From a virus, in IMG/VR virus record IMGVR_UViG_3300013132_000034, positions 1-64,000 of that record: a stretch of 64,000 bases of DNA. One strand, written 5' to 3'. Of the stretch, positions 21,081 to 52,603 are shown piece after piece. Both the position numbers and the translations under genes were made by a program. The number at the start of each line of letters is the position of its first letter. Position 1 is the stretch's first letter. The notes below the pieces were generated by a model that was not told where the DNA came from, made no database searches, and saw nothing but the letters and a program-made list of their open reading frames with translations.

Positions 21081-21344
21081 TTATGGTCCTACTACATTTG
21101 TTAAAAGCCCATTACTGAAAGTAAATGTGCTGGTATTTAAAACGAAAGTATGTGATAACCCAGTTAAGCTATTAGTTAGAAATCCATTTTTCGCGCTTAA
21201 TGATCCGTTTACAACAAAATTACCTTGAAATGGGTAAAGTTCAGAGGCAATGGGGTCGGAAGCACTATCAGGTACCCCAGGGGTGCTATTTGTATGGTGA
21301 TTTGCTCTATGATACTTGTTATGAAATCTTGCGTTCCCGGCCAT
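21081..21344 (-). CDS. Small probable virion protein with His-rich N-terminus
   Basis: MAGNARFHNKYHRANHHT; FSNGLLTNV end; perfect TATAAATA upstream. Confidence 0.65.
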   Translation of the reverse strand: MAGNARFHNKYHRANHHTNSTPGVPDSASDPIASELYPFQGNFVVNGSLSAKNGFLTNSLTGLSHTFVLNTSTFTFSNGLLTNVVGP

Positions 21345-21385: not shown

Positions 21386-23026
21386 TTAACTAATAACTTT
21401 TGTAGAAGTTAGGGGAGGCCATACGTTTAATTTAGTATCTCTTAAAACACTTAACATATGAGTTTGTAAATCATACATTTTTGATATACTTCTATTAATT
21501 ACCGAATTACTATACATTTCATTTATACCGACTAAATAATTTAAACTATAATCAAATTTTTCTTTTTGGACCTCATTATCAAGTAAATACAAAGTACCAT
21601 AAAGAAGTAGATTGCCGCTACCATCATATTTTCCGGCAAATCTTTTTGTTATTCTATCTCTCATAGCTAAAATATTAAGTAAAATTTTGTAATTCGACTT
21701 GCTAAAAACCCAGTCTTGAGAATATTCTTCAGGATTTACTCTTATTTCATCAATAGTATACATATCCAAGTCATTATTTGTCAATATAGTTACATAGCTT
21801 GATTTTTCTAGAAATGACAAGAACATTCCAGCATTATAGCGTTTACCATACACCACTAAATTATCAATATTGTCTGAATATTTGGTTAAATAACTAAAAT
21901 TAAATTGTGTAGTTGTAATATTGTTGTCACTTAACAAAAATTTGCCTATATAAGTTTCAGGTTTACTTATAAATTTTTTATAAATGTTTTTATTAGAAAT
22001 TGTATAGAAGATATTATTATCTACTTCGGAAAAATTAAAATCAATTATTTTTTCGTTAGTAGTAAAAAAAGAAGACATTGAAAAAAAGTTGCTTGTTGAA
22101 AGCTCCGGAGTAAACACACCCAATATAGTATTAAACCCCAAATAAAATTTATTATTAACAGGATTTATCTTAAAAGCAGTTATTTCATTTTCTAGAAACA
22201 AGTTTTTATTTCTAAATGTTTTTACCCAATTCATATTGCTGTCAAAAACTTTAACACAGTAGTTGCCGCGGTCCATAATATATAAATTATTTTGATATAG
22301 ATTTAAAAAGCCTGGATTATTAAATTTATCTATGTCTTGATAAGTGCCTGTACCGCCCATACTATCAACATATACAATCTTTCTACCAATAATATTATCT
22401 TCTTCAAGCAAATTGTTAATATTATATTGATAGATTGTATCATTACCGGAATCACACACATATAAATACTGTTTAGTTTCATCTATAGCAATAGAATCTA
22501 TTCTACCAAAAGTAAATGTAGAGTTTTCTGTAACTTTATTAGTTGAAAGAAAGACACCTATAGTATTGTAATTATAATTACTAGTTAACACATAAAGATG
22601 AGTATTTGATGCAAAGAAACCTATATTAGCATCGCTATCTACAGGTGATTTTTTTGTAAAATTACCTGAAACAAGTTGGTCAAGCTGTGGTAATCCATAG
22701 CTTGATAATGGTTTGCTGCTGTTTGTATTAGTAATATTTGAAGGTATCCAACTAAATGCACCACAAAGAGGGAAAAGACCTGTAGATGAGCCTGAAGCTA
22801 ATTTTGCATATTGAAAAGGTATATTATTGTCTGATAATTTAGTTAAAGAATACAAATAAATTAAATTAGATTGAAGCTTGCTATAAATTTCATTTATTGT
22901 TTCATGATACGAAATTTCATTTATCGGAACCGCTATTTCTTCGTAACTATAGGGTAGCTCAATAGTACCGCCCATAGTTCTATCATAAAAATAGTTATAT
23001 TGCTTTACAATTTCACTCGCTTGCAC
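21386..23026 (-). CDS. Probable virion protein with NHL-type beta-propeller repeats
   Basis: LYVCDSGNDTIYQY, FNNP...LYIMDRGNYCVKVFD. Confidence 0.7.
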   Translation of the reverse strand: MQASEIVKQYNYFYDRTMGGTIELPYSYEEIAVPINEISYHETINEIYSKLQSNLIYLYSLTKLSDNNIPFQYAKLASGSSTGLFPLCGAFSWIPSNITNTNSSKPLSSYGLPQLDQLVSGNFTKKSPVDSDANIGFFASNTHLYVLTSNYNYNTIGVFLSTNKVTENSTFTFGRIDSIAIDETKQYLYVCDSGNDTIYQYNINNLLEEDNIIGRKIVYVDSMGGTGTYQDIDKFNNPGFLNLYQNNLYIMDRGNYCVKVFDSNMNWVKTFRNKNLFLENEITAFKINPVNNKFYLGFNTILGVFTPELSTSNFFSMSSFFTTNEKIIDFNFSEVDNNIFYTISNKNIYKKFISKPETYIGKFLLSDNNITTTQFNFSYLTKYSDNIDNLVVYGKRYNAGMFLSFLEKSSYVTILTNNDLDMYTIDEIRVNPEEYSQDWVFSKSNYKILLNILAMRDRITKRFAGKYDGSGNLLLYGTLYLLDNEVQKEKFDYSLNYLVGINEMYSNSVINRSISKMYDLQTHMLSVLRDTKLNVWPPLTSTKVIS

Positions 23027-26000
23027 GGTTATTACTCCATATTATATTTCTCAACTTTGTATAAGAAGGCATTACCCCGTCTAAAATTTGTTTTATTTGT
23101 TTTTCTAAATTTAATTTTAATGTAATATCAGTAATACCTGTATTTTTTATTTCTAAATCAAAAATTCCAGATTTAAAACCGGGTATTTTATTTTTAAATA
23201 CAAATTCAATTTCATCTAATATATTTCTTCTACCTGATGGTATATCAAATAAAATTGTATAAAAGTCTAAACCTTGTTTTACATGTAGGTTAATTTGTGC
23301 TTCATCTAGAGTAGTGTTATAAAAATATATATTTTTTAATTTTGTATTGTTTACAAAGAAAGAATTTTTTTGTTTTAATCGATTTGCTAAAATTCTGTTA
23401 TTAAATGATGGTGTAGCGCCAGCTAATAATGGTTCTTTTAATAGATTATTAAAAATATAATTGTTTTCAGGAAAAAATGCATTGTTTACCAACTGACCAT
23501 CAACAAATAATGTCATTGTACCTCTATAAGTATCAACCCTTACCGAAAAATGATGATATCCTACATCTATGCCGGAGGTATGAAAAGGAAGATCAACAAC
23601 TAAACTATCATTGTAATCATAGACATTTCTAAGCTTTATTTTTGCATTTATATTTTGTGGTTTATATTTCTTTTTTACATAATATCTTGCATAATCACCA
23701 CCTGAAGTATCTGCAATAGTATTGGCAGAATATGAATTACTTAAGATATTAGTTTTAAGTATATCCCCGTTATAATTAATTTTATCCATTCTTAATTTGT
23801 TAAAATCTGACAATGAACTTAATCTTGAATATGTAATTAATTCTTCTTTATATTGGGAGCCTTCAAAATAATTTATTAGATCAATATTAGTGAACGTGCC
23901 TGACAGATCAACAGCAAAAGTAGATAACAAAGTTTTGTCTGGTGTTGTTGTAAGTTTTGATAATTTATTACCAGTGTGCAACACCCATAAATAACCATTA
24001 TTATCAATATTAAAATCTATTAAATTATCAAATTTATATGCAGAATACCTTTCTTTAGAAATAGTATTGTATACAAAAATAAAATCTTTCCAACTTATGT
24101 AAATATCATTATCAAGTATTTTAGGTGAATAACCTTGTATGGGATACACCTGGTTATTATATGCAATTATATTAGTAAATCCTGTATTGTCAAAATCAAT
24201 TACATTTGCAGCGTCATATAAAAATCCGGTATTATCATAACTAGATATTTGACCTGTATTAGTATCCAACATAAAAAAATCATCTGATTCCTGCCCAGTA
24301 AGCACGAAGCAAAAATTATCATTAATTGGAAATACAGATCTCACATTACTTATTTGTGGTATTGTTACTTTATCTAACGAAACACCATCCAAATTCACCC
24401 TCACTACATCATTATTTTCAAGTATAGGAAAATAATCTTCACATTGATCATATCTTATTAAATTTTTCACTTCACCATACAGGCGTTTAGTATCAACATA
24501 AGCTAAATCGGTGTTAAAAATATTTACCGCAGATTGTGATAAAATAGTTATATAAGGTGTAACATAGTTTGTACTAAATACACCAAAACCATCATTTATA
24601 TAGTTACCAATAATTTGATTTGCGTAGTTTTTTGTCCAATCTTTTGTATATAAGTAAAAATTTAAAGTAAATTTATTAAAATTTTCAGGGCTTGATATTC
24701 TTCCGGTTCTTGCATATTCGTTACCATTAAACGAATATTCTAAACTTTCGTTTTCTACAAGACTACCTGATAAACTTTCATAAAATATGTTAGTATAAAG
24801 ACTCAAATCTTTTTCAAATAATATATTGTTAAAAGTTTTTATTAATTGATTTATTGTTTTCTTACCTAAATGATGATAAGCATACAAAACACCAGGTTCA
24901 AATGTAAATCGGCTAGGTATATCAACTACAACTTGTTTTATAAATGGCAATTCATTTTGTGTCCCTTGCAATTCGGAAAAATAATTTACGAGAGGGTTAG
25001 GACCCGAGGTAAACGCTGCAACATAAGTGGTTTTTTCTGGAAAATAATATCTATCTATCCATACTGGCCGTATTTTATCATTTGAACCAGCGGAAAGCCA
25101 TGAACACAAAAAGGTTCCGCTTTGTTCTATTGTTGCATCACCAAATGAAGAGGTATTTTTATAATCTGCTTTCTTTTTAAACAATTTATCTGATCGTAAA
25201 GGATGATCCCCTGCAATTGCACCACTTTCAATCAAACCTGTATCGCTTATATTAAGCTTCGCGAAAGGAAACAAATCTTGAGGTGCATGAAAATATGTTA
25301 GTTTATCTGGTTCAAACTGACGCTGACTAGTATAAGATTCATAACCTAATAAAATATTTTCATTGCCACCTATTTGATTAGTACCTGTAAATAATTTTTG
25401 ATATTGCCTTTGTTGTATCTCAGGTTCTTTTACTGAAAATGGGTTGTTTTTTGATTGATAATTTTCAGGTGTATTGGTATTTTTTAAAGTTAAAATATTT
25501 ACTGGTAATGTTTTACCGGATAGACTATAGTATTCAGCATTAATTAAAAAGTTTGTATCTAGCTTTGCATATGAAGGACAGTATTCATTGTAAGGTAAAG
25601 GCCTATCATCAATAGTTAAATTGTTTAGCTTGAGATCTTTAGTATATTGTGCCCAGATACTATTAACTACCGGTTCATTTTGAGGTTCAAATCTGGGCCT
25701 ACATCTATAAATTTGATCATTTAAAAATCCAAAATCATCTGAAGTTAATGGTAGATATAGAGATATATCTTTAGTTATCTCAAAAGTCTGCAATATATAA
25801 GCAACATCATTTATAAGTTTGTATATAACAATAAAATCATTATTTCTATCGTAAAGATAACAAAACGATTGTGTAGAGTTAGGATCAAAAGGATTTTGAC
25901 CATTATCTAAACAAAAAAATGTATTACCGGTAGCTTGTAGATAATTTATAGTGAGATATCGTGTATAGTTATTATATGAATGTGCAATTCTACAAATTTT

Positions 26001-26420
26001 ATCATCAAGAAATTCTATATCGAAAATATATCTATTATTAATATCTATAAAAATTCCTGATGCTGATACATCTATAGTTGAAATATTTCCTTCAATATCA
26101 TTTTCAATATTCCAAAAATCTGTTTTAGTTGTCAGCAGTTTATCTGCATCTGATGCAAGCCATGTAGTAAATTTTTCTATTTTAGGATTTTCTAGAGATT
26201 TAAACTGTATATTATCTTGTAAGCTGAACCTGTCAGTTAAATAAAAATTACTATATTTGTTAGATGATGCATCACGAGAATCTTTTAAAAAATTATGAAG
26301 TAATATATCCAGATTTTGTTCATTTTCAAAATTATCGTTTTTAAGCGATAGAGTACTGTCTAAATCATAGCTTAAACGTATGGAGGGGTATGTTGTTTTA
26401 TTTAAAGCCTGGATTTCCAT
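23013..26420 (-). CDS. Large probable baseplate/virion protein with LamG/ConA-like and beta-propeller segments
   Basis: FNGNEY...FTLNFYL and YHHFSVRVD...TLFVDGQLV LamG-like halves flanking beta-rich repeats. Confidence 0.65.
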   Translation of the reverse strand: MEIQALNKTTYPSIRLSYDLDSTLSLKNDNFENEQNLDILLHNFLKDSRDASSNKYSNFYLTDRFSLQDNIQFKSLENPKIEKFTTWLASDADKLLTTKTDFWNIENDIEGNISTIDVSASGIFIDINNRYIFDIEFLDDKICRIAHSYNNYTRYLTINYLQATGNTFFCLDNGQNPFDPNSTQSFCYLYDRNNDFIVIYKLINDVAYILQTFEITKDISLYLPLTSDDFGFLNDQIYRCRPRFEPQNEPVVNSIWAQYTKDLKLNNLTIDDRPLPYNEYCPSYAKLDTNFLINAEYYSLSGKTLPVNILTLKNTNTPENYQSKNNPFSVKEPEIQQRQYQKLFTGTNQIGGNENILLGYESYTSQRQFEPDKLTYFHAPQDLFPFAKLNISDTGLIESGAIAGDHPLRSDKLFKKKADYKNTSSFGDATIEQSGTFLCSWLSAGSNDKIRPVWIDRYYFPEKTTYVAAFTSGPNPLVNYFSELQGTQNELPFIKQVVVDIPSRFTFEPGVLYAYHHLGKKTINQLIKTFNNILFEKDLSLYTNIFYESLSGSLVENESLEYSFNGNEYARTGRISSPENFNKFTLNFYLYTKDWTKNYANQIIGNYINDGFGVFSTNYVTPYITILSQSAVNIFNTDLAYVDTKRLYGEVKNLIRYDQCEDYFPILENNDVVRVNLDGVSLDKVTIPQISNVRSVFPINDNFCFVLTGQESDDFFMLDTNTGQISSYDNTGFLYDAANVIDFDNTGFTNIIAYNNQVYPIQGYSPKILDNDIYISWKDFIFVYNTISKERYSAYKFDNLIDFNIDNNGYLWVLHTGNKLSKLTTTPDKTLLSTFAVDLSGTFTNIDLINYFEGSQYKEELITYSRLSSLSDFNKLRMDKINYNGDILKTNILSNSYSANTIADTSGGDYARYYVKKKYKPQNINAKIKLRNVYDYNDSLVVDLPFHTSGIDVGYHHFSVRVDTYRGTMTLFVDGQLVNNAFFPENNYIFNNLLKEPLLAGATPSFNNRILANRLKQKNSFFVNNTKLKNIYFYNTTLDEAQINLHVKQGLDFYTILFDIPSGRRNILDEIEFVFKNKIPGFKSGIFDLEIKNTGITDITLKLNLEKQIKQILDGVMPSYTKLRNIIWSNNRASE

Positions 26421-27170: not shown

Positions 27171-27755
27171 TTAAATTTTATCAAACATAGTGCTTTGATT
27201 AAGATGGGGTAGAGGCTCGGAAGGTATATCTACATTTAAAAACTTACAAAATGGATCCCAACCATCAGAAAACTTATATATTAATAAAGGTTTATTATCT
27301 GTTTTTGCAAAATTAATAATTTTTTCTTTATGAATGAGTACTTCTTGACAAAAACTTTCTTGGTTTAAATCTGTTTTTTTAAAAACTTCAAGTAAATTAA
27401 AATAATCAAAAGTTTGAGCAGGTTTTGATGTATTTTTATTAAACCAGTCTTCTAAAAGTTTAAAATTTCTTGACAGCCCAACCTTTAAGAAAGAATTATA
27501 TATAGCTAGTGGGTCTTTATCTATATAAATTAAGTTAAAATCAAATCCTTTTATCATCTCTAAAAAAATTAAGGAATAGAAAGGTGTATCTGAATAAAAT
27601 TCGTATCTCTTGCTTTGAAGATATGCAAACGCGTGCTTGCCACCAACATGCAGTGCATTAAGACCAACAATTTTTGCCATTTTTGTTAAAGACAAGGTAC
27701 CTGTTCTGGGTAAAGAACATACTATAGTAAGAGGCTTATCTTTTTCTTGGCTCAA
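27171..27755 (-). CDS. Sulfotransferase-family (Sulfotransfer_4-like) P-loop protein
   Basis: LPRTGTLSL PAPS-binding-type loop, DTPFY, DGWDPFCKFLNVDIPSEPLPHLN. Confidence 0.8.
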   Translation of the reverse strand: MSQEKDKPLTIVCSLPRTGTLSLTKMAKIVGLNALHVGGKHAFAYLQSKRYEFYSDTPFYSLIFLEMIKGFDFNLIYIDKDPLAIYNSFLKVGLSRNFKLLEDWFNKNTSKPAQTFDYFNLLEVFKKTDLNQESFCQEVLIHKEKIINFAKTDNKPLLIYKFSDGWDPFCKFLNVDIPSEPLPHLNQSTMFDKI

Positions 27756-29425
27756 TTCTCTCTTCTTTCTTTAGATTCGTAATGTGCAAAACGGTAATGA
27801 TTAATAGGTGACAGCAACAACAATGCCCCTCTCAAATTGCCCGATTTAGACATCTGAAAAAATTGAGACATCCATGTTTGTTCGTATGGGTGCGCCCATT
27901 TAGTATCTAAAAACATTTTTTTATTACCAGTTCTTGAAACTATTTGAGGCCAATTACAATAATAAATTTCACCATCAATGTATGCCAACCCATCACATGA
28001 ATTTATATTGTTAAATTGTGTTTTTGGAGCATTAGGGTCTAAACCTTGTACTGGTAATACTGTTTTTTCTGGAAAAAATTTCTCTCTTACTGTTTGCGGA
28101 ACATTATACCACGACCACTGGGTCTTATTATCACCAAAAAACTCTGTAAATGAAAATTTAAGAAAATCATACTCTTCTTTGTCCATTATTTTAATAATTT
28201 TATAAAACAAATTATCAGTAGTACGCGGAATTCCATTCTTACAAACTCTTTCCGGTCCATTGTAAAGATTCATATCATCTTCAAAAAACATATAGTATTT
28301 TCCGTTAGTAGTTTCAAAATGATCGGCAATAAATTGCCGTCCACCGCATATTCCTATATTGTTTTGTTTGATATGTTCAAAATTATACTTTGCACATATA
28401 CGTTTATAATCATCTGTGGTTGTTAAATTAGTACTATTATCGATTAGTACATTGGTAGTATCTCTGAAAAACCCGGGTTGTATTAAATAGCTTTCAATAA
28501 GCTTGGAAAATTGCTCAGGCGAATTAAACCCTATAACATATGAATAAGTCCCAGTGTGATTGCTAAATATTTTTACATCTTTTTTAGTTACATCTAAATT
28601 TTTTACATCTTCAAAAAACTTTACTACTAAGCCATTATCTTCAATCATGTGTTTGTGAAACATTTGAGGATATATGTAAGAGAGTATTGTAAAAATACTT
28701 TCTTCCGTGCCCATTAACCCTTCATGTAATGAATTTGATAGTAATGCATAATATGCACCGTTAATATCGCTCATATCTTTGGTGCTACCGCCGAAAAAAC
28801 CTCCTCGACATACATATTCTACATTTTTTGTATGTGCATATTCATTTATTTTCGGTCTGCTAAAGCCATGTATTTCGCCACCACCAGTATATGGAAAGGT
28901 TATAAACAAAAACTTATCTGTTATTTCAGGAATTTTTTCTATAACTTTGTCCTTGCTGAAATAACCCGGGTGAACTGTGTTGGTTAAACCACCATCAATC
29001 CAATACATGTATTCTGTATTAAAGGGGTTGCGTATTTTTTCATCATGCAGCATAAACATTTTTGACATAACCATAGGGTTATATAACTCCATGGTTGCTT
29101 GGGTGCTCTCACGAAGCCAACCAGCTTGATTCAACCAATTTTCGTTTTTTCTTATATTTTGTACTTGATCATAGAATGGAAAGTGTTCTTTAAATGAATC
29201 TGTTTCTTTTATTCTTATTACTGTGTTATGTGGTTGACGCAAACTATTGACAAGATCTTTATACTTGTCTTCTATATAAATTACTAAATTATAATCTTTT
29301 AGAGATGTAAGCAATTCCGTGAATTTAACAATATAATGTGAAAAAGGTCTTTTGAATCCTTCACCAGCATTATTTCTACCCAGGTCCCATATGCCTGTGA
29401 CAAGGGTAATATTGTTTTTATTCAT
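27752..29425 (-). CDS. HtrL/WlaTC-family glycosyltransferase fused to a second GT-A (GT2-like) domain
   Basis: ITLVTGIWDLGR, PFNTEYMYWIDGG, CRGGFFGG, GTEESIFT; second half NIGICGGRQ...YYMFFEDDM. Confidence 0.8.
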   Translation of the reverse strand: MNKNNITLVTGIWDLGRNNAGEGFKRPFSHYIVKFTELLTSLKDYNLVIYIEDKYKDLVNSLRQPHNTVIRIKETDSFKEHFPFYDQVQNIRKNENWLNQAGWLRESTQATMELYNPMVMSKMFMLHDEKIRNPFNTEYMYWIDGGLTNTVHPGYFSKDKVIEKIPEITDKFLFITFPYTGGGEIHGFSRPKINEYAHTKNVEYVCRGGFFGGSTKDMSDINGAYYALLSNSLHEGLMGTEESIFTILSYIYPQMFHKHMIEDNGLVVKFFEDVKNLDVTKKDVKIFSNHTGTYSYVIGFNSPEQFSKLIESYLIQPGFFRDTTNVLIDNSTNLTTTDDYKRICAKYNFEHIKQNNIGICGGRQFIADHFETTNGKYYMFFEDDMNLYNGPERVCKNGIPRTTDNLFYKIIKIMDKEEYDFLKFSFTEFFGDNKTQWSWYNVPQTVREKFFPEKTVLPVQGLDPNAPKTQFNNINSCDGLAYIDGEIYYCNWPQIVSRTGNKKMFLDTKWAHPYEQTWMSQFFQMSKSGNLRGALLLLSPINHYRFAHYESKERREN

Positions 29426-29459: not shown

Positions 29460-30347
29460 CTATACATACTTGCTAAAAATTTTATAAAAAGAATTATTAT
29501 TTCTTTCTAAAATGGGCATAAAAGGTGCACCGCTGTCTTCATGATACCAACACCCAAAGCTTTCTAATTTCATAGTATCTTGTTCTGTATTAGATATAAA
29601 TTCAGATAACAACCCCTCTTCAGACACCATTAAATTATTATCAAGATAACCTTCGAGATACTCTGTATATGTTTTATGTAAGTTAGTTATAAAATCTCTA
29701 GTACCTCCAAACAGACCACCAACTACATGATACTTTTGAAATCTCTCGGAATTACCATAAAGCAATTTACCGGAAGGAAAATGGTCCACTAAGAAAGGCT
29801 TTTCACCTACAACAAAAAAACTATTTTGTTTTTCATCAAAACTTAACATTTTTGTGAACACTTCAGGGTTGAATAAGTTAAATTCATAATAACGAGCTAG
29901 TGAATCATACTGCTCACCAACAAATTTTTGTGGAAATAAACCATTATATGATAAACCACAATCAATCCAGAAAATATTTTCATAGTTAGTGGTTTCTTTT
30001 ATTTGATTAAGCCATGTAACCTTGCTATGCATAATTTCAAAACAACGATCAGGCCATACTTTATTATGACCACCTAATATTTCTTGAAATCTTTTATGAT
30101 ATTTGCATTCTTTTAAATCGTAGGGTACCATGTTAAGATTAGAAAAAAATCTATGTTTAAATTCGCCTTGCAAACCATCTTTACTAGCTTCATCAACATA
30201 AACATAGATGTTAGAATTAATTTTGGAAATACTTCTCAAAGAATATACATACTGGTGCTTGCGACTTGCGCGTCCTCCTAGCGAGGTATTGTATAAATTA
30301 GTATAACAAGATGTTATAAAGCATGTATTATCTTTTAAGTTGATCAT
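29460..30347 (-). CDS. HtrL/WlaTC-family glycosyltransferase
   Basis: IMHSK, IFWIDCGL, VVGGLFGG, SEEGLL; similar to the N-half of 27752..29425. Confidence 0.75.
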   Translation of the reverse strand: MINLKDNTCFITSCYTNLYNTSLGGRASRKHQYVYSLRSISKINSNIYVYVDEASKDGLQGEFKHRFFSNLNMVPYDLKECKYHKRFQEILGGHNKVWPDRCFEIMHSKVTWLNQIKETTNYENIFWIDCGLSYNGLFPQKFVGEQYDSLARYYEFNLFNPEVFTKMLSFDEKQNSFFVVGEKPFLVDHFPSGKLLYGNSERFQKYHVVGGLFGGTRDFITNLHKTYTEYLEGYLDNNLMVSEEGLLSEFISNTEQDTMKLESFGCWYHEDSGAPFMPILERNNNSFYKIFSKYV

Positions 30348-30949
30348 GACTTCTTATATTTACATGTCCATACTACATCATTAAAATTAATCTTATCATA
30401 ATCAACCAAATTATGCTCTAAACAAGTAGGTTCGATATCTTTTTCAGTTAATTCGCACCAACCCCATACTGTTCTCTTATACTCCTCTGTGAATAACTCT
30501 AAACTCCTGCAAAAATCATGTGCCATAATAAAATCCCCTGGCTTAAGAAGTGGTGCTGCCTTCTTAAATTCAAAAAGCTTGTTCCCGCCGTCACATAAAA
30601 CTAACGTTTTAAGCGGACAAAGAATGTCATCTTTAATTTCTTGATCTATATCTTTCATATACCCGGGAGCACCTTTTTCACCAAATGTATCACGCTCAAC
30701 AACTTTTACACCTAATTCAGTTAAAACCCCTTTGAGAAAAATTGGCGGTAAATTATACGTTGACATCTTTACAGGGTTACTATGTTCACGTATAAATCTA
30801 GTAAGACACCCTGTACCAGTACCAATCTCAACTATATTCTCAAACTTCTCTTCATCCAAAAGTTTTTGAAAATATATATCATATTTTTCATGTTGCTGTA
30901 ACATTACTTCTTTATATACTGTAAAACCTTTTATGGCATTATCACTCAT
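30344..30949 (-). CDS. Class I SAM-dependent methyltransferase (CmcI/Methyltransf_24-like)
   Basis: IVEIGTGTG, LVLCDGG, LLKPGDFIMAHD. Confidence 0.8.
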   Translation of the reverse strand: MSDNAIKGFTVYKEVMLQQHEKYDIYFQKLLDEEKFENIVEIGTGTGCLTRFIREHSNPVKMSTYNLPPIFLKGVLTELGVKVVERDTFGEKGAPGYMKDIDQEIKDDILCPLKTLVLCDGGNKLFEFKKAAPLLKPGDFIMAHDFCRSLELFTEEYKRTVWGWCELTEKDIEPTCLEHNLVDYDKINFNDVVWTCKYKKS

Positions 30950-30957
30950 AATTTTAT

Positions 30958-32289
30958 TTAGCTAACTACATGGTGTCCAATAGTACCAGTTATGGGATCT
31001 TGCCAACCTTTACTGATACTATGAGGCCAGACTATCCAGCTTGCTGGCAATTCCTCTGCATTAAACTCTCTCCAGACCTTGCAATAACCATCAGGATCAT
31101 TTCGCATACGTGCAATTTCGTCTTTATCAGCATCCTTACGAAAAACATCTTTGCCAGCTTTATCCTTAAATGCTACACACCAAAAATCATAATCATCAAG
31201 AGGAATCTGACTATACTGTACATCAATGCAATGTTTAAATATTTTTAAGAATGAAGCTTCAAACTCTTTCTCATTTTTAAATGAGTATGGATTTGGTGCG
31301 AGATTATTATCTAATGTATATCTTTGGACTGCACGTTTTTTAAAACAAAGGCCTGAATATTTCTCATATTCGCGCAAAGTTCTTTCAGTACCAAAATCAT
31401 ATATACCAAAATCAATATCTTTCTTCTCACCATCCATTTCAAATAACTTGCGATTTCTTAAATGACAAGCATCATTTCTTTTAACCCATTCTTTATCGTC
31501 ATCCCATTGCTTAGTCCGTCCTTTTCTTGTATATTCATGCCATATTACCACTCGATGTGGGTGAAATAAATCGTAACCCTTGGTAAATGCTCTTACTGCA
31601 ATACTAATTTCTTCGCCGTGAAAATAATAATTAGGATCATGAGGAACTTCTTTACAAAACTCGCCTAATGTAAAACAAAAATGCGCAGAATAAAATCTAG
31701 CAGGTATTGGTTCATTGCGTTCTCTCCAATCATCAATTGTTGCAGGCAAGAAAAATACCGCGCCTTCAGGTATAAATCTATCAAAATTCATTTTCCATGG
31801 CTCTTGTACACGTGCTTGAGGATCTTTATCCGGGTCAAAGCTAGGAATATAACCAGTTAGCAAAGGTTTTTTGTGCCCTTTTTTCTGTAACTGTAATATC
31901 ATATTAACTAATATTTCATCCCAATCTTTAACAAATCTGTGATGGCTATCCAGCTGTAAAGTGTATTTTTCATCTTTATAATATTGTTGTACTAAGTTAC
32001 GTGCCCAACAAACACCCTTGCTTTTTGTATATGGTACATCAATTATTCTAAATTTACTATCATTAACAAATTCTTCTAAAGATTCTTTTTCATCATGTTG
32101 CCAGCAAATACCAAATCTCAATCTATTAGGATATTTTGCATTTGCTAAGCAATCTCGCAAAGTAGGGACAAGTTGTGGGTCTCTATACGCAGCAATTTGA
32201 ATATAAATTGTATCTTCTGCAGATGATACGGGTATAGCAGTTACATTTTTAATTTGTTTTTTTGTTTTTTTAGATGGTCTTGGCGGCAC
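30958..32289 (-). CDS. GT60-like polypeptide N-acetylglucosaminyltransferase (Gnt1/Skp1-GlcNAc transferase family) with an extra C-terminal domain
   Basis: IQIAAYRDPQLVPTL..C...AKYP.RL..GIC.Q, SKGVCWAR, LQLDSHHRFVKDWD, LLTGY, VPHDP..YFHGEEISIAVRAFTKGYDLFHP...WHEYTR. Confidence 0.85.
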   Translation of the reverse strand: MPPRPSKKTKKQIKNVTAIPVSSAEDTIYIQIAAYRDPQLVPTLRDCLANAKYPNRLRFGICWQHDEKESLEEFVNDSKFRIIDVPYTKSKGVCWARNLVQQYYKDEKYTLQLDSHHRFVKDWDEILVNMILQLQKKGHKKPLLTGYIPSFDPDKDPQARVQEPWKMNFDRFIPEGAVFFLPATIDDWRERNEPIPARFYSAHFCFTLGEFCKEVPHDPNYYFHGEEISIAVRAFTKGYDLFHPHRVVIWHEYTRKGRTKQWDDDKEWVKRNDACHLRNRKLFEMDGEKKDIDFGIYDFGTERTLREYEKYSGLCFKKRAVQRYTLDNNLAPNPYSFKNEKEFEASFLKIFKHCIDVQYSQIPLDDYDFWCVAFKDKAGKDVFRKDADKDEIARMRNDPDGYCKVWREFNAEELPASWIVWPHSISKGWQDPITGTIGHHVVS

Positions 32290-32295
32290 AATTAT

Positions 32296-32323
32296 ATTTT
32301 AATAGTATATTTTTAAATTTCAA
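32296..32323 (-). promoter_or_regulatory. Sigma70-type promoter TTGAAA-N16-TAAAAT, 6 nt before GTG 32289
   Basis: Read directly; same geometry as 6038 and 47260. Confidence 0.6.
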
Positions 32324-33842: not shown

Positions 33843-35285
33843 TTAATTTATATTTCTTCCTATACCACCAATAATACCGTCTGCAAGCGGTTGACCGTAT
33901 ATCGGTTGAGTTGGTGAAGGTGTAATAGTTGGAGTTGGTGTTGGTTGAACTGTAGATGGAGGTGTTGGTGAAATTTGCGGTGTAGGTTGTGGTGTACTTG
34001 TTGGATTTGGTGTATTTGTTGGTGAAGGTGTTACTGTTTGTGATGGTGTATTTGCTGGTGTATCGGTAGGTGTTATTGTTGGTGTTTCGGTAGGTGATAT
34101 GGTTTGAGTTGGTGTAAAGGATGGTGTCACTGCAGGTGTTGCAGTTTGTGTAGGTGTGCGAGTAGGTGTAGATTGAGGTGTTGATGTCTGTGTTACAGAT
34201 TTTGTTGGTGTAACCGTTCTTGTAATTGAGCAAGTTGGAGTAAATGTAGGTGTTGGTGTTGTTGTAGGAGTTTTTGTAGGGGTGGGCGAGGCAATTGTAC
34301 CTGCAACATTAAAATTCTTGATACCAAAGTCGGTATTGTTCAGGGATGAAAAGTTTAATCCTAATTTTAAGCTATCTAAAGCAATACCTGTGCCTAGAGT
34401 TGGGCTGTTATAATTTAAAATAGTTACATAATCATTATAATCACCTGGTTTAATTTTTACTTCTATTGTTTTACCTAAATCTGTTAATCTTATCTTTATT
34501 CTGTTACCTGAATTTGCAGTAAGCGATGATGCTAGATTATTGGTGAGTAAAATAGGCAAAGAATAGAATGAGCTGCTTAAATTATCAGATTGTATTAAAT
34601 GTTTATAGCTATTTAAATAGGAATCTTTAATAGAAACAGAATTTGGCACTACAGTTGAAGTTATATTGTTAAGCGTTTGTCCAAATCTACCAGTAAAATC
34701 AAATCCCACCCCAAGCAATCCACCAGCCTTGCCAGCATAAACAGACCCTACATTTTTTCGTTCTAAGTTAGGGTACCCCCAACCTGCAGGTTTATTTGGG
34801 CCATCTTTCCAATCTACAGCCCATACGGGAAAATCACTATTGCTAGTACTATAATAGTACAACAAACTGTTATTAAGCCAAATTCTCCACCCTGTAGGGT
34901 ATATACCATAAGTAGTATCGTAAAATCCTATTCTTAGACCCCCATCATTTCTATAAATTGGTCTATCTGTATAATTTGAATAAGCTGAAATATAGATAGG
35001 TGTGAATGTATTATTGGCTTCACTTAGTAAGAGATGTGAATTATTAAATATATCACCTGTTAATGGTAGGTACCCTAGCCCCCAACCAGGCGAACCACCG
35101 CTTAGAGAAGAATTACCTTCATAAAAAAATAAACAAAATCCTTCGGAGCCTGTTTCATTTAAATTTTTATCTAACAAATTACTATATACATTAGTAACAT
35201 AATCAAATGAAATGACAATATCACCTTCAGGCGACAATTCATAATTAGGAAAAAAAGTATATGACCGGGTTTCGTTAAAATTCAT
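33843..35285 (-). CDS. L-type (legume/ConA-like) lectin-domain protein with a long Thr/Pro-rich C-terminal stalk
   Basis: ISFDY...GSEGFCLFF...GGSPGWGLGY...LLGVGFDFTG...PNSVSI; about 130 aa TPTPT-type tract at about 33903-34290. Confidence 0.7.
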   Translation of the reverse strand: MNFNETRSYTFFPNYELSPEGDIVISFDYVTNVYSNLLDKNLNETGSEGFCLFFYEGNSSLSGGSPGWGLGYLPLTGDIFNNSHLLLSEANNTFTPIYISAYSNYTDRPIYRNDGGLRIGFYDTTYGIYPTGWRIWLNNSLLYYYSTSNSDFPVWAVDWKDGPNKPAGWGYPNLERKNVGSVYAGKAGGLLGVGFDFTGRFGQTLNNITSTVVPNSVSIKDSYLNSYKHLIQSDNLSSSFYSLPILLTNNLASSLTANSGNRIKIRLTDLGKTIEVKIKPGDYNDYVTILNYNSPTLGTGIALDSLKLGLNFSSLNNTDFGIKNFNVAGTIASPTPTKTPTTTPTPTFTPTCSITRTVTPTKSVTQTSTPQSTPTRTPTQTATPAVTPSFTPTQTISPTETPTITPTDTPANTPSQTVTPSPTNTPNPTSTPQPTPQISPTPPSTVQPTPTPTITPSPTQPIYGQPLADGIIGGIGRNIN

Positions 35286-35286
35286 T

Positions 35287-35559
35287 TTATGGCAAGGTTA
35301 GAGTTGGTGTCGGTGTAACAGTACATGTAATGGTTGGTGTTGGTGATTTTGTTGGGTCAGGTGATGTAGAGGGTGTTGGAGTCGGTTGTGGTAATGGGTA
35401 GCTTGATAAGAGAAAACAACTATCACATGAATTTGAGCCAACAATTTCCGCTTTTCTTACATTTATTAACCCACTATTACCAGTAGAAATATAACAATCA
35501 CCATAATAATTTACAGTGCTTGATAAAGAATCTGCATATATATAAAGTGAATTTGCCAT
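35287..35559 (-). CDS. Small protein with a Cys-containing N-module and Thr/Pro-rich tail
   Basis: GDCY...SCDSC then PQPTPTPSTSPDPTKSPTPTITCTVTPTPT; AATAAATA 5 nt upstream. Confidence 0.65.
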   Translation of the reverse strand: MANSLYIYADSLSSTVNYYGDCYISTGNSGLINVRKAEIVGSNSCDSCFLLSSYPLPQPTPTPSTSPDPTKSPTPTITCTVTPTPTLTLP

Positions 35560-35591
35560 CTAGTTATTTATTGTAGCTGTAAAGATTGAAA

Positions 35592-38500
35592 CTATACAAC
35601 TCTTTGTACATATGGATATGGCGGGTTACCCTTAATAGTAATATTAGTTCCTACAGGACCACCTGAACTTGAAACTGGAGATTTAGCAGTTATTGTGTTG
35701 TAATAACCATATGGAGCGCATGCGAATTCGTTAATTGGTTGTGTTGATGCATATACAAAACCAATATCACTTGTCCAGTTATTTGTACTTGATAATATTA
35801 AGCCCTTGACATAAGAAGAATCACTATTAAAGTCAGAAACAAATACTAGAGTAAAGTTTGGATTAGCAGTATTTGCATAAAATACAGTAAATGCAGATGG
35901 ACTTATAAGTCTAGTATATGCAGCTGTTAATGTATAATTACCATTTGCAGCAGTTAAACCAGCACCACTTACATTTATTACTAATGCATCTGGACATAAA
36001 TTATTCCATGGTAGCGGGGTTGGTGTTGGCACAGGGTTAGTTACTGTTGGTGTAGGTGTCAATGTAGGTTGCGGTGAAGGTGTGGGGGTTACAACAGGGC
36101 TAAATATTAAACCAGCATCACAATTAACGAATTCACCAACTATCAAGCTAGGTGATGCAGATGTACCAAACCATAAAATTGATTCATCTTTGTTTTGATA
36201 TGATGAGAATTGACCTGTAATAGTATTTCCATAAAAAGCTGTAAGCGGCAAAGTAACCGAAAAATTTAAATCTTTTATAAAAAATTCGGGTTTGTAAGCA
36301 ATATGTTTTATAAAATCTACATTAGCATTATTAATATAAAATTCATGGTATATATTAACAAATACATTATTACTATTTTTCGCGAAATAGTTGAGAACGA
36401 ATGTATTCGTGTCTTCGTTATAACTTAAAACAGGCTTGTCAATACGTTCTATGTTTGTATCATCATCTAAATGAACATAAAAACCTGATAAATTTTCGTA
36501 ACTAACATTAAAAGTAGGATAAATTTTTAAAAATTGAGGATTTGTAATGTTTATTTCATAAATTTCAGGATACAATACTTTTTTATTTGAAGCACTAAGT
36601 TCTGGTATAAGAACCATTTTTGCAATATAAGCTATATTTTGTTTTTCGTTAAAAAATAATGTACTAAACTTTTCAAGTTTTTTATTATTGTTATATATTT
36701 TAACAAAATTCTTTGAGCTATCGAAGGGTTCAATTATATTCTCTATATAATTATAAGAAAGTTTATCGAAAATAAAATAATCTTTTGTTTCAATAAATAA
36801 AACGTTATAAATTAATTCAAAATTAACAACTCCTTGTTTTATATTATCAACAACAAAACTTGGATATTTTTCATAAACGGTTGAAAGAGCAATATCAAGC
36901 GTATTTACATTTGTAGTATTTGCATTCTTAACATACAAATTGCCAATTTCTTCATATCTGCTTTCATAAATTGATTTGTTTTTATCAAGATTTGTTGATA
37001 AAGCTTGTACTGACGTTTGATATTCTGTAGGTACCGCTAAATTAACAAATTCTGCATTGTCATCTCTATAATTTAATGTACCGGGTCTTACAGTAGTAGC
37101 AGAATTAGATATGGCGCAAGGTGTTTCACCAGCTAAATTAAATCTAAACCCTTCTAAATCTACCAATACATTAGCAGATAGAGGGAATGTATACGAAAAT
37201 GTAGCTCTATCGACGTTATTAGGTCGAGTATAATCGTCGTTTAAGCTTCCTTCTAACAATTCACTGTAGTAAACAGGTACTGAAGAGTTAAAATCTGACC
37301 TATCTGAAGAAACATCTAATCGTAAATTACTTAAAGGGTCTACAAAAGTAACACAGTCTAATAAGACGCAATAAGTTACTTTAAAAATATCACAGTATGT
37401 GTCGATGCAAGAGCCATCTTGTTGAACCTCGCAAAAATGACCTTTTCCATAAGCTATAACAAGTAATGGTGTTGGTAGTGGTGTAAACCTAACAGGAGCA
37501 TTGTAGGGGAAATTAATAACATAATTAGCATAAGGGTCTACTCCTGGTAATAATCTATTAATTCCTCTTGCTGATAAACTTGTATAGTAACCGCTGCCTG
37601 GGGGTATTTGTGAAACAGTTCTAGATGTTACACCAGATATATCTTTGTCAGGATTGGGTATAGTTAAATCAATATTAAACCCGCTATCAAAATCATAAAA
37701 TTTATAACCGTCTAACAGTAAACAATTTTTTATTCTTAAATTGGTAAAATTATTTATATTTAAACCTTTTCTTCCTGTGCCATACAAACCACCGCGCCCG
37801 CCAGTGAAATTAAAAAAATCTAATTCTTGTTCTGAAATAAATTGTCCTCTATTTTTACCACCACGGCCAATCCCTACAGGATTTATTTCTTTATAAAGAC
37901 CAAAATTATTTCCGTATATATCATTTTTGTATTTTGTGAGAGTCTTGTTTAAAACTAATAAATTAGATTGTCTTTGTTCTAAAGGATACAAATTATCTTG
38001 TACGGGATAAACGTCGGAATTAGCCCATACTGATTTTGATGAACCTTCAAAAAATTCTGTACTGTCTATATCACGTGACATGCCTATAGGTTGATAACCT
38101 ATAGTTTCACTTCTGCTATGGTAAGCATAAAAGTTTTTATATAATGGATTACTTACTATATTACCAAAAAGATATTGAGCAGTTCTATTAAAATGCATCC
38201 ATGAAACATCTTCTTCATAAATTAATGGTGATTCAAAATCTGTTTCAGATAAGTTAGTAATATTACCATATTGAGAAGGGTCAGGAAATACGTAAACTTT
38301 ATTTGTTTTTAATTTATTATTATCTATATCTACTGTATGTTTAAAATTATTAAAATTTAATACGCCTAATTTGTCAGGTAGAAAGAATCCCCCTATTTGT
38401 CTTATATTTTTTAAATTACTTTCATTTTCAACTGCAGCTGCAGAAGGAAATCTTTTATTTAAAAAATTTGTAGATTTATCTTCGGCTTCAAAAAGTAACC

Positions 38501-39464
38501 CCGAAGCTATATCTGAAAGAGTATTTCCTACACTTAAATAATAATAGTCAGTGCCAATAAATTTTTGTATTAAATCTTTTTCTAAATTTAAATTTAAATT
38601 ATTTTTTTCTAAATTATTTATTTGATTTATAAAATCCCTATCTTTTAAATATTGTAAATCATCAGAATTTACTTGAAAATTAATTGAATAAGAGGTATTT
38701 AAATCGTTGAGAAAAAATGTATAAGCAGTTATAGCATCAATTATGATTTTATCAAAATCAGTAAATAATTTTGTATTAAATTCATTAGTATTTGATGTAT
38801 AAAAATCTGATGAAAATGTTTTGTTGTATGTAGTTGCGGGTAAGTCAGGGTTAAGATCAAAATATTGTGATTCATCGTACAGTTCATTTATTTCTAAACC
38901 TATATTATTTTTAACAGAAGAAAGATCGAATAAATTAGTTTGATTGGATACAAGCTCTATAGCTTTTAATGCTTTAAAAATTTCATTTTTTATTAAAGTT
39001 TTTACACCAGCTTGCGAACCCTTCAATGAATTTTCATATTTTTTAAACGGTACATTCTGTCTTAATAATGAGTAATAGTTACATATTTCTTTAATTTTTT
39101 TAGTGAAAAATGGTATAACAGAATATAAATCTAAATCATTATTAAAATCTGCATTAGTAACGAATCTTCTTTCTTCTAAAGTAGAGAAATTAAGTAAAAC
39201 TTCTCTTAAAAAACCTACAAATGTAGATCTAACGAAATCAGTGCTTTCGATTTTATCTATTTTTTTATATTTGTACCATTGTAAGAGATAGTATTTGTAT
39301 TGTGAAACTAAGAACTCGCTATCTGATTCGGATGAATTTGTTTTTATTAAAAAATTTAAAAATGTGAAAGGTTCATTATAATCGCCTGCATTAACTGTTT
39401 TGCCGGATATTATAGAATCAGGTACAGATATTAAAATTGTATTTTTTTCTAAAACATCGGACAT
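35592..39464 (-). CDS. Large probable baseplate protein with a Thr/Pro linker before the C-terminal domain
   Basis: 1290 aa, downstream of gp6; VTPTPSPQPTLTPTPTVTNPVPTPTP at about 36010-36095; late promoter. Confidence 0.65.
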   Translation of the reverse strand: MSDVLEKNTILISVPDSIISGKTVNAGDYNEPFTFLNFLIKTNSSESDSEFLVSQYKYYLLQWYKYKKIDKIESTDFVRSTFVGFLREVLLNFSTLEERRFVTNADFNNDLDLYSVIPFFTKKIKEICNYYSLLRQNVPFKKYENSLKGSQAGVKTLIKNEIFKALKAIELVSNQTNLFDLSSVKNNIGLEINELYDESQYFDLNPDLPATTYNKTFSSDFYTSNTNEFNTKLFTDFDKIIIDAITAYTFFLNDLNTSYSINFQVNSDDLQYLKDRDFINQINNLEKNNLNLNLEKDLIQKFIGTDYYYLSVGNTLSDIASGLLFEAEDKSTNFLNKRFPSAAAVENESNLKNIRQIGGFFLPDKLGVLNFNNFKHTVDIDNNKLKTNKVYVFPDPSQYGNITNLSETDFESPLIYEEDVSWMHFNRTAQYLFGNIVSNPLYKNFYAYHSRSETIGYQPIGMSRDIDSTEFFEGSSKSVWANSDVYPVQDNLYPLEQRQSNLLVLNKTLTKYKNDIYGNNFGLYKEINPVGIGRGGKNRGQFISEQELDFFNFTGGRGGLYGTGRKGLNINNFTNLRIKNCLLLDGYKFYDFDSGFNIDLTIPNPDKDISGVTSRTVSQIPPGSGYYTSLSARGINRLLPGVDPYANYVINFPYNAPVRFTPLPTPLLVIAYGKGHFCEVQQDGSCIDTYCDIFKVTYCVLLDCVTFVDPLSNLRLDVSSDRSDFNSSVPVYYSELLEGSLNDDYTRPNNVDRATFSYTFPLSANVLVDLEGFRFNLAGETPCAISNSATTVRPGTLNYRDDNAEFVNLAVPTEYQTSVQALSTNLDKNKSIYESRYEEIGNLYVKNANTTNVNTLDIALSTVYEKYPSFVVDNIKQGVVNFELIYNVLFIETKDYFIFDKLSYNYIENIIEPFDSSKNFVKIYNNNKKLEKFSTLFFNEKQNIAYIAKMVLIPELSASNKKVLYPEIYEINITNPQFLKIYPTFNVSYENLSGFYVHLDDDTNIERIDKPVLSYNEDTNTFVLNYFAKNSNNVFVNIYHEFYINNANVDFIKHIAYKPEFFIKDLNFSVTLPLTAFYGNTITGQFSSYQNKDESILWFGTSASPSLIVGEFVNCDAGLIFSPVVTPTPSPQPTLTPTPTVTNPVPTPTPLPWNNLCPDALVINVSGAGLTAANGNYTLTAAYTRLISPSAFTVFYANTANPNFTLVFVSDFNSDSSYVKGLILSSTNNWTSDIGFVYASTQPINEFACAPYGYYNTITAKSPVSSSGGPVGTNITIKGNPPYPYVQRVV

Positions 39465-42918: not shown

Positions 42919-44769
42919 TTAGTATTCAATTTTAGTGTTTACAGTAGAAGTTGTAAGTACCTCAATTTTATTAAGAATGTCTAGCGGGTTATTAAGGAAG
43001 GGGTATTTAAAATATGGAAATAAATAATTTTGCGATACAATCTGTATATCGTTTTCGGGGTAAACTGGATTCCAAACTAAAAAATTCAATCCCGGTACTT
43101 TAAACGTACCCATATCATCAGTTCTCTCAACATAAAAATCTTCTACACCATCAATAGCAAATATTTTTGTAGTAATATCGTTTATATCAAATAATTTACC
43201 TAAATTATTACTAGTTGATTCGAAGGCAGTTTTAATAATATTGTATACAGTATTTTTAATAGTTTGGGTGTCTACCTGAGAAAGTACATTTTTTGTAATG
43301 ATTAGCTTGGATTGTGTCGTAACATTAGGTGATAAGTTTTCCCCCGCTCTCATTATACCGAAGTCAACTGATACATATACAGGGTCAAATATTAAAACCT
43401 CAGAAGTAAGAGTTTTAAAATTTTGTAACGTATTTAAAATTAATTCTTTTTGTGCAGTGTTTAGATAATTAGTTCTCTGTGTTAAAGAAGTAATTTTATC
43501 TAATCTAGGCACCCCATAGATGTATATGTTGTTAAAATCACAAGTATCAGCAAATTTTGTTTGGTTGAATAAAACTCTAGAATCATTATTTGGTCTTTTT
43601 AACCCCAAATCATAGTAATATCTAAAATGACCATTCAAATAATCCCAATTATTAACTGCTTTTGTAGCGCTTATGATATTTGCAAAATTTTTATTAACAA
43701 AAGATTCATAATCTTGAGCAGTAACTAATCTAAATTGAGAATTATATATTCTAGGAGCGTTTGTTTTAATTTCTTCAGCAGATTCTTTATCTTGAAACTT
43801 GGTTGATGGTTCGTTATTTGAGAATGTAAGGTATCGAGTTTGATCATTATTTAACAAATTTAAATTTGTTGAAACAGTATCTTTTATTATAGTATTATAT
43901 CTTAAAGAATCATATAAAAATAATTTATTACCATCTAATGTTCCTATATCGACTTCACCCCTATCACCGTCAGTTTGTAAGAAATAAATAGCAACTTCAT
44001 CGCCCTCTTCTAATTTTTTTCCAGTAATGCCATTACCAAATTTAATTTCGTAGCGCTCATTTTCATTTAATCTTTTTTCAAAAACTCTGCTATTTGAATC
44101 ATTTAAAAATAATCATGCAGTTTCTGAATACTTAAAATATTTACTTGATGATTTTTCTTTTACATAAACATCAATATTAAAATGATCAATTTTTTGATTT
44201 TCTTGATTTGCAATAAATGTTATGGTTAATTGTTCGTATTCTTCACCGCTTGCTGTATAAGTAGGGTATTCAACGTAAGCTCCTTGATATAATAAATTAG
44301 TTTGAGAAAATAAACTTAAAATTTCATCTAAATTTGCCTCTTTAATAAAAGTAGCATCATTATTAAAGCTATAAGTAATTCCGTTTAAAGTAAAATAAGA
44401 ATATCTTTTAATTGTATATGTATCTACTGGTAGACTTTTTGATGCTATTGAATTAAAACTTAATAATGCAGATTGATATCCTATAGGCTTGTAATTTAAT
44501 TCTTTTACTATTTTGTTTATATTTTCGTACAACGTTGCTTGACTGAATAAAGTTTCTGCTGCTGTTCTATTTAAATAAAACAAAAGAACATGATAAGCAT
44601 AAGCTATAATATCAATAACAGAAGAAATATTACTACCTTCATAATTTTGATCCGTAAATGTATTATTAGCATTTAATCTATCAATAATAAGTTGCTTGAG
44701 TGATAAAGCATCAAAAGCAGCATAGCCGTCTCTATTAATTAAGAAATTTGAATCTTGTTCTACACTCAT
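42919..44769 (-). CDS. gp6: Baseplate wedge protein, T4 gp6-like, 616 codons with a single in-frame TGA at 44113-44115 (the ORF track splits it in two)
   Basis: FTDQNYEGSNISSVIDIIAY, LNYKP, YEIKFGNGITGKKL (in the 85 codons between the two track ORFs), ESAEEIKTNAPRIYNSQFRLVTAQDY; frame continuous across ETA*LFL. Confidence 0.88.
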
Positions 44770-52597: not shown

Positions 52598-52603
52598 ATA
52601 CAA

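Follow-up and report, generated by a model that had tools for sequence, protein, structure and literature searches.

A GT60-family glycosyltransferase gene in an uncultured T4-like phage is linked to genes for Thr/Pro-repeat proteins

What does a tailed phage do with a glycosyltransferase (GT) of family GT60? The question is raised by a gene at 30958..32289 on the minus strand of a 64-kb stretch of viral DNA (positions 1 to 64,000 of IMG/VR record IMGVR_UViG_3300013132_000034; hereafter the window), which encodes a 443-amino-acid (aa) protein. GT60 genes accompany Thr-Pro repeat proteins across phages and bacteria, so the phage probably glycosylates its own tail proteins. On balance we favor the reading that the enzyme acts in the cytoplasm and initiates O-linked N-acetylhexosamine (HexNAc) glycosylation on Thr/Pro linkers in tail-region proteins of the phage itself.

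The window is a portion of a linear 97-kb virus record with a CheckV completeness of 46%. It is AT-rich (GC ~30%), nearly every gene lies on the minus strand, and many genes overlap by 4 bp. A T4-type portal protein is encoded (PF07230, E 1.6e-101), together with a tail sheath, a large terminase and tail fibers; the portal is only ~34% identical to the portals of cultured cyanomyophages. The source is an uncultured, distant T4-like myophage. A giant virus was also considered as the source, but portal, sheath and terminase are of T4 type and genes overlap by 4 bp, which identifies a tailed phage, and this reading was rejected.

The GT60 open reading frame (ORF) opens after a TAA at 32301-32299, starts with GTG at 32289 and ends with a TAA stop that is included in the coordinates. 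The first in-frame ATG lies near residue 130, where a start would remove a third of the fold, and the short Lys-rich N-terminus has counterparts in close homologs. The first-pass annotation, made from the sequence alone, had placed the locus at 30958-32323; the coding part of that interval reaches 32289, while a TTGAAA hexamer resembling a -35 element begins at 32323. A hidden Markov model search with PF11397 (“GlcNAc”), the Pfam model for CAZy family GT60, scored 249.8 bits (cut-off 21; E 7e-74) and bears out the family assignment made in that annotation. The match covers profile positions 1-44 and 92-350 of 352 and stops at residue 316 of the protein. The PHROGs family phrog_24687 (“glycosyltransferase”) matches residues 26-434 (E 1.6e-177), and the NCBIfam scan gave no match for the protein. 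We assign the protein to the GT60-type enzymes with high confidence.

An alignment of 46 homologs (35-82% identity) showed that E226, E227 and H251 are invariant and that Y35-R36-D37, D114-S115-H116, G225 and W250 are at least 90% conserved. The complete YRD, DSH, GEE and WH motif set recognized earlier is thus both present and conserved. D114-S115-H116 (31942..31950, minus strand) can be equated with the DxH metal-binding motif of GT27 enzymes by the structural match described below and by what is known of GT27, and H251 of the WH motif (31537..31539, minus strand) is by the same analogy the probable third Mn2+ ligand. The N-terminal ~25-27 residues are Lys-rich, variable and non-hydrophobic and are modeled as disordered, with a predicted local distance difference test score (pLDDT) <50. 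Neither sequence nor model contains a signal peptide, a membrane segment or a type II membrane anchor, in agreement with the soluble enzyme proposed at first.

The AlphaFold2 model built from the 46-sequence alignment reached a pLDDT of 93 and a predicted template modeling score of 0.88, with confidence >90 through the linker and into the C-terminal part. The catalytic GT-A domain is placed at residues ~26-322 (31324..32214, minus strand), both by homologs without the C-terminal domain, which end matching at ~322, and by superposition on polypeptide N-acetylgalactosaminyltransferases (ppGalNAc-Ts). The top Foldseek matches were all ppGalNAc-Ts (E ~1e-9). VIA-align likewise ranked 29 ppGalNAc-T (GT27) entries of the PDB first, with Z 19.6-23.0 and a root-mean-square deviation (rmsd) of 3.3-4.2 Å over 270-295 aligned residues that share just 12-16% identity; GT2-type enzymes were the next structural class (Z ≤17.7). 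An ordinary lipid-directed GT2 as best structural match had been named beforehand as the result that would speak against a GT60 enzyme; it did not occur: the ppGalNAc-Ts scored 19.6-23.0 and GT2 enzymes at most 17.7. A sequence search of the PDB found no solved relative. The protein is predicted to have a GT-A fold in which the DxH motif and the distal His form a metal site.

A search over 1.84 billion representative proteins returned 4,677 relatives, many of which align across residues 26-437. Others, of ~300 aa, end near residue 322, which marks the last ~110 residues as a separable module. Two to four GT60 catalytic repeats occur in some very long relatives (900-2,461 aa). The strings FKHCIDV, WCVAF and WIVWPHSISKGW, previously read from the region after the motif set, were all found in the C-terminal part of the translated ORF. 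Modeled alone, the C-domain of ~90 aa (residues ~347-436; 30982..31251, minus strand) folds into six strands and a short helix with a pLDDT of 89.5, and W429 is invariant in its alignment. Pfam has no match over residues 330-443, even at E ≤5, and Foldseek gave none for the domain alone at E ≤1e-3. In a structural search against 48,161 chains, the matches listed were almost all fibronectin type III (FN3) domains; the best (Z 7.5, rmsd 3.1 Å, 83 aligned residues) supports the general arrangement only. No ricin-type beta-trefoil was among the matches listed, which were FN3/immunoglobulin (Ig)-like only with Z ≤7.5 and do not in themselves exclude families that are not listed. The first-pass annotation had compared this region to the lectin domain of ppGalNAc-Ts. 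A separate domain is indeed present, but the lectin fold is not borne out: as the matches are nearly all FN3, the domain is predicted to be an FN3/Ig-like sandwich and not the ricin-type lectin of ppGalNAc-Ts. That it recruits substrate is a guess.

Directly upstream of the GT60 gene (33843-39464) are genes with Thr/Pro tracts, in line with the earlier observation that it lies just downstream of lectin/mucin genes. Four of the five Thr/Pro tracts in the window fall within three genes located between a gp6-like baseplate gene and the GT60 gene, all on the minus strand, and their products are candidate acceptors. The first is a 480-aa protein (33843..35285) with tracts at 33897-34127 and 34197-34307, the second a 90-aa protein (35287..35559) that ends in a tract at 35290-35397, and the third a 1290-aa protein (35592..39464), encoded downstream of the gp6-like wedge gene, with a Thr/Pro linker at 36003-36098. 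The gp6-like gene itself is split, since two adjacent minus-strand ORFs (42919-43857 and 44113-44769) match the N-part and the C-part of phrog_219 (gp6-like baseplate wedge).

This arrangement recurs. A Thr/Pro tract lies within 10 kb of the GT60 gene in 49 of 80 viral loci, at 13.6 tracts per 100 kb; the value for portal-centered loci of the same lineage is 2.9 per 100 kb. Six records drawn from the window's own portal lineage were compared for GT60 presence and (TP)3 hits. The three with GT60 have 5 hits (G037, 217 kb, 100% complete), 6 hits (G042, 157 kb, 74% complete) and 10 hits (G044, 108 kb, 51% complete), whereas the three without GT60 have 0 each (G038, 131 kb, 60% complete; G041, 199 kb, 91% complete; G045, 209 kb, 100% complete). 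Among 18 further large GT60-bearing records, 14 contain (TP)3 hits and none contains the reversed control pattern. A T4 portal is missing from half of these records, which places the cassette in no fewer than two groups of phages. Approached from the other side, a set of 36 IMG/VR records (each ≥30 kb), selected solely for an exactly encoded (TP)5, included 8 with PF11397, compared with 4 of the 50,697 cultured phage records.

Two further comparisons yielded less. Relatives found through the 1290-aa neighbor amounted to only 4 loci, too few for a presence/absence comparison. A second T4-like lineage, used as a control, is uninformative because of fragmentation: completeness is 11-34% for almost every record, and the Thr/Pro hits are concentrated at the ends of contigs. 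On the fragmentary T4-like contigs G073, G074, G077 and G079-G081, the Thr/Pro-coding repeats lie within a few kb of the ends. The pattern suggests that assemblies break at the Thr/Pro repeats, or at a variable island next to them, so that GT60 genes are missed.

Cultured phages show the same association. (TP)3 hits number 29 in XacN1, 26 in Xoo-sp13 and 19 in RAS14, with 0-1 for the control pattern, and those of XacN1 include the paralogous ORFs 232-237 and the 2,823-aa ORF384. XacN1 virions contain at least two Schiff-stained glycoprotein bands, for which the authors proposed the GTs ORF328 or ORF334 (PMC5852040). ORF334 is the homolog of the window GT60 protein.

Bacterial GT60 genes, too, have Thr/Pro-repeat neighbors. 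A Thr/Pro tract was present in 33 of 80 bacterial GT60 loci versus 0 of 20 control regions taken from five of the same genomes (p 1e-4). Four genomes were then viewed as a whole; they were chosen partly after an earlier result, and the new information they give is the genome-wide rarity of the tracts. Jiulongibacter sediminis (4.5 Mb) has just one (TP)4 tract, in the ORF adjoining GT60. A Gemmatimonadaceae metagenome-assembled genome (MAG) also has just one, which ends 78 bp upstream of GT60; the ORF directly upstream (L099:9230-9955) fuses a PqqD-like (peptide-recognition) domain to this tract. All 59 overlapping (TP)4 hits of a Saprospiraceae MAG are within ORFs adjoining GT60, and in Ralstonia sp. 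25C (6 Mb) the largest tract is ~1 kb from GT60. One Saprospiraceae neighbor (L110:2313-7850) is a 1,845-aa Thr/Pro-rich protein with a weak N-terminal match to a crAss-phage muzzle protein (26.5 bits; cut-off 27), and the locus, though classed as bacterial, may belong to a prophage or to a phage that was binned wrongly.

The neighbor that bears the tract is a VgrG with a C-terminal Thr/Pro extension in Ralstonia, Paraherbaspirillum, two Trinickia species and an Acidobacteriota MAG. VgrG spikes assemble in the cytoplasm, like phage tails. The loci are L139:12297-15161 (Ralstonia sp. 25C), L114:13933-16422 (Paraherbaspirillum soli), L151:16631-18979 and L132:15126-17411 (Trinickia) and L112:333-2678. 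All five proteins contain Phage_GPD and Phage_base_V, four of them also Gp5_trimer_C, and the C-terminal extensions consist of (TP)n or PPTE repeats. The five genes are 0.9-7 kb from the GT60 homolog, and the Burkholderiales GT60s at these loci are mostly without the FN3-like domain.

An inspection of the genes around GT60 revealed one conserved partner and a variable cassette. When the ORFs of the 80 viral GT60 loci and the window (81 loci) were clustered, a single family, the HtrL-fusion partner, occurred within 10 kb of GT60 in 77 loci; any other family was found in at most 28. The partner is also within 10 kb of GT60 in 34 of 80 bacterial loci. In the window it is a 557-aa protein (27752..29425, minus strand) with an N-terminal HtrL_YibB domain (PF09612, E 8.8e-15) and a C-terminal half that is probably GT-A-like. 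Pfam has no match in this half, and one of its three nearest Atlas clusters carries PF00535 on 25% of members, which makes GT2 only a lead. The partner gene either immediately precedes GT60 or is separated from it by a run of 2-10 genes for small, variable enzymes; the order in XacN1 is GT60, a carbamoyltransferase, two ORFs and ORF330, which is 43% identical to the 557-aa partner over its full length.

Three variable cassette genes accompany the partner on the minus strand of the window: an HtrL-like paralog of 295 aa (29460..30347), which clusters with the partner N-domain in BLAST and has no Pfam match; a possible S-adenosylmethionine (SAM) methyltransferase of 201 aa (30344..30949), which has only weak matches over the SAM-binding stretch (NCBIfam E 0.004, Pfam E 0.06-0.2) and recurs in 22-23 related loci; and a sulfotransferase-like gene (27171..27755; PF17784, E 3.2e-13). 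The run was previously described as methyltransferase, HtrL, HtrL/GT2 and sulfotransferase. The HtrL and sulfotransferase parts of that description stand, whereas the methyltransferase is weakly matched.

When would the enzyme be made? A sigma-70-type promoter-like site on the minus strand (32296..32323) consists of TTGAAA (32323-32318), a 16-nt spacer and TAAAAT (32301-32296), ends 6 nt before the GTG and matches the consensus at 10 of 12 positions. Taken here alone it is indistinguishable from chance, as the scan found 58 such sites in the window versus 53.6 ± 6.8 in shuffles. In related loci, TTGATT, 16-17 nt and T(A/T)AAAATA are kept at an equal distance from the start amid diverged intergenic DNA, and the starts behind this pattern are mostly GTG. 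The pattern precedes 16 of 81 GT60 genes versus 22 of 1399 other ORFs (p 1e-11), and the distance from the end of the -10 element to the start codon is 6-7 nt in 14 of those 16. The structural genes of the window instead have T4-type late motifs (TATAAATA or TAAATA) directly before their starts. The early-type promoter of the first-pass annotation is thus supported, because its geometry is conserved across related loci and it differs from the TATAAATA late motifs. We infer that the GT60 gene is expressed early and yields a near-leaderless transcript.

Exact TATAAATA motifs lie 0-8 nt before the minus-strand genes 21081-21344, 23013-26420, 51290-52603 and 57705-60011, and TAAATA occupies the equivalent spot before many others, including the methyltransferase-like gene just after GT60. 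The sole other gene of the window with the same sigma-70-like geometry is 46819-47253 (minus strand; TTGAAT, -10 element ending 6 nt before the start). Shine-Dalgarno motifs are scarce across the window (4 of 61 genes).

The enzyme had been labeled “eukaryote-type”. This label is misleading because the family is widespread in bacteria and phages, and it reflects only where GT60 has been studied: the full GT60 plus C-domain architecture is found in >7,000 metagenomic proteins (up to 83% identity), in 353 IMG/VR loci and in at least 538 loci of one-per-species bacterial genomes. Only 4 of 50,697 cultured phage records contain GT60, all of them jumbo phages with 48-51% identity (Xanthomonas XacN1 and Xoo-sp13; Stenotrophomonas CM1 and RAS14). 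The searchable literature gave no phage or bacterial GT60 pathway, and a query for bacterial GT60/Gnt1 returned protist work only.

The proposed pathway can be outlined as follows. Host RNA polymerase, acting at the sigma-70-type promoter, would make the enzyme before or independently of the late virion proteins. As a soluble, cytoplasmic, Mn2+-dependent retaining GT-A enzyme, it would move a HexNAc, probably N-acetylglucosamine (GlcNAc) from UDP-GlcNAc, to Thr hydroxyls of baseplate and fiber-region proteins encoded by the phage itself, within their extended Thr/Pro-rich linkers, and so start a mucin-type O-glycan, while its rigidly attached FN3-like domain may dock it on substrates. The two-domain partner, part HtrL and part GT-like, would extend the chain, and the variable genes (methyl- and sulfotransferases here; carbamoyltransferases and further GTs elsewhere) would diversify the glycan. 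An acceptor Thr had initially been preferred to hydroxyproline as no prolyl hydroxylase was seen in the window. A PF13640 search for prolyl 4-hydroxylase (P4H) over the whole record (46% complete), four 100%-complete GT60 phage genomes and XacN1 was also negative, which fits this preference; a host enzyme could supply the activity.

Several observations weigh against this pathway. The Thr/Pro linkage is a correlation among phylogenetically related records. Both Thr/Pro linkers and glycan cassettes favor variable tail-fiber regions, so the adjacency in phages could partly reflect a common location. The association also has exceptions: 28 of the 36 (TP)5-bearing IMG/VR records are without GT60, 4 of the 18 large GT60-bearing records are without any (TP)3 hit, and G073 (261 kb, 89% complete) has 11 hits, at a contig end, and no GT60. 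PHROGs has no match for the Thr/Pro proteins of the window, whose place in the virion is deduced from gene position only, and the sugar, donor and acceptor of prokaryotic and phage GT60 members are all assigned by inference alone. A transcript beginning at the GTG would be poorly translated in some hosts. Finally, HtrL and sulfotransferase genes are typical of polysaccharide pathways too.

In an unlikely alternative, the cassette serves to rebuild a glycan of the host envelope during infection, be it the lipopolysaccharide (LPS) core, the O-antigen or the capsule, perhaps as a block to superinfection, and the acceptor is a sugar or lipid-linked. HtrL_YibB is named for an LPS-core cluster gene, sulfo- and methyltransferases are common in polysaccharide tailoring, and conserved ends around a variable middle resemble O-antigen loci. 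GT2-type enzymes are the second-best structural class (Z up to 17.7), and some GT60 homologs, though few, have a precomputed PF00535 (GT2) match; the window protein has none at E ≤0.01. The enzyme, however, is without a membrane segment and the ppGalNAc-Ts score clearly above the GT2 enzymes, while Pfam, NCBIfam and PHROGs scans of the neighbors named no flippase, polymerase or undecaprenyl-phosphate priming transferase. Rebuilding of an envelope glycan also leaves unexplained the genome-unique (TP)n tracts beside GT60 and the linkage to VgrG.

It is also doubtful that the enzyme modifies a single site on one folded phage or host regulatory protein, as Gnt1 does on Skp1, with the Thr/Pro linkage being incidental. 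The best-studied GT60, Gnt1, is indeed a cytoplasmic single-site enzyme (PMC6939170). The 65-83% identity across divergent phages is what would be expected if one conserved partner were recognized, and an FN3-like domain could serve as a protein-protein docking module. Single-site modification is nevertheless hard to reconcile with the statistical Thr/Pro linkage in phages and bacteria; the sole conserved neighbor is another transferase, and no P4H was found in the genomes searched. Modification of hydroxymethylated DNA bases against host restriction is very improbable: T4-like phages do glucosylate DNA and phage glucosyltransferases against restriction are cited in PMC5852040, diverse phage GTs are reported to hypermodify DNA (Pyle et al. 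2024, as cited in PMC12619734), and the GT60 gene of XacN1, Xoo-sp13 and RAS14 is a few kb from DNA polymerase and RNase H genes, but no thymidylate-synthase-type hydroxymethylase was found in this record (46% complete), the window GT60 gene sits among tail genes, chromosomal bacterial homologs adjoin Thr/Pro-repeat proteins and VgrG, and the fold is closest to peptide-directed enzymes.

Initiation on Thr/Pro linkers can be compared with several known systems. Metazoan GT27 enzymes (GalNAc-T2, -T4 and -T10) are the closest solved structures and share the order of a catalytic domain followed by an appended C-domain. They initiate mucin-type O-glycans on Thr/Ser/Pro-rich tracts. Unlike them, the phage enzyme is predicted to be cytoplasmic and not in the Golgi, is without a membrane anchor, and has an FN3-like C-domain in place of the ricin-type beta-trefoil. 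GtfA/GtfB of Gram-positive bacteria initiate O-GlcNAc in the cytoplasm on the Ser/Thr repeats of serine-rich-repeat adhesins, and variable elongating GTs are encoded nearby. The proposed phage pathway would resemble this system in cytoplasmic initiation on low-complexity repeats before the protein leaves the cell; GtfA/GtfB differ in having a GT-B fold (GT4) and an unrelated sequence, and their substrates are exported by the accessory Sec system.

The characterized GT60 enzymes transfer alpha-GlcNAc onto mucin Thr or Skp1 hydroxyproline (PMC6939170, PMC8724618). With these protist enzymes, the Trypanosoma cruzi mucin pp-alpha-GlcNAcT and the Dictyostelium and Toxoplasma Gnt1, the phage protein shares PF11397, the GT-A core, the DxH motif and the distal His. 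It is predicted to be soluble and cytoplasmic like Gnt1, and to act on a Thr-rich acceptor like the T. cruzi enzyme (PMC6939170, PMC8724618). It differs from them in being phage-encoded, in its extra FN3-like C-domain and in its pairing with an HtrL-fusion transferase, and from the Skp1-Gnt1 pathway in that no P4H partner was found; the protist enzymes are described as without a C-terminal targeting domain (PMC8724618). Mycobacteriophage GTs likewise are phage-encoded and decorate the phage's own structural proteins; there the capsid and tail-tube subunits are reported to carry glycans at their C-termini (Freeman et al. 2023, as cited in PMC12619734), and the account given in that citing article describes no GT60 or Thr/Pro stalk.

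More broadly, we tentatively suggest that a cytoplasmic pathway of mucin-type O-glycosylation is common to tailed phages and bacterial type VI secretion systems. In this pathway GT60, with an FN3-like docking domain, would start glycans on the (Thr-Pro)n of baseplate, fiber and VgrG proteins before assembly, the HtrL-fusion protein would extend them, and fast-evolving tailoring enzymes would produce a phage-specific glycan coat. Glycosylated particle proteins have been documented for only a small number of phages, and the initiation of mucin-type glycans is considered eukaryotic. Whether the enzyme glycosylates Thr/Pro stalks can be tested directly, as XacN1, Xoo-sp13 and RAS14 are cultured and XacN1 virions already stain for glycoprotein. 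If it does, freshwater T4-like and jumbo phages, a large and abundant group, would build their own glycan coat, as would certain jumbo phages associated with plants and certain secretion spikes of bacteria. Such a coat could protect extended linkers or alter what the particle sticks to, and would matter for host range, for the stability and adhesion of the particle and for how defenses recognize it. GT60 and GT27 would then gain a prokaryotic or viral branch, which would be relevant to the origin of mucin-type glycosylation.

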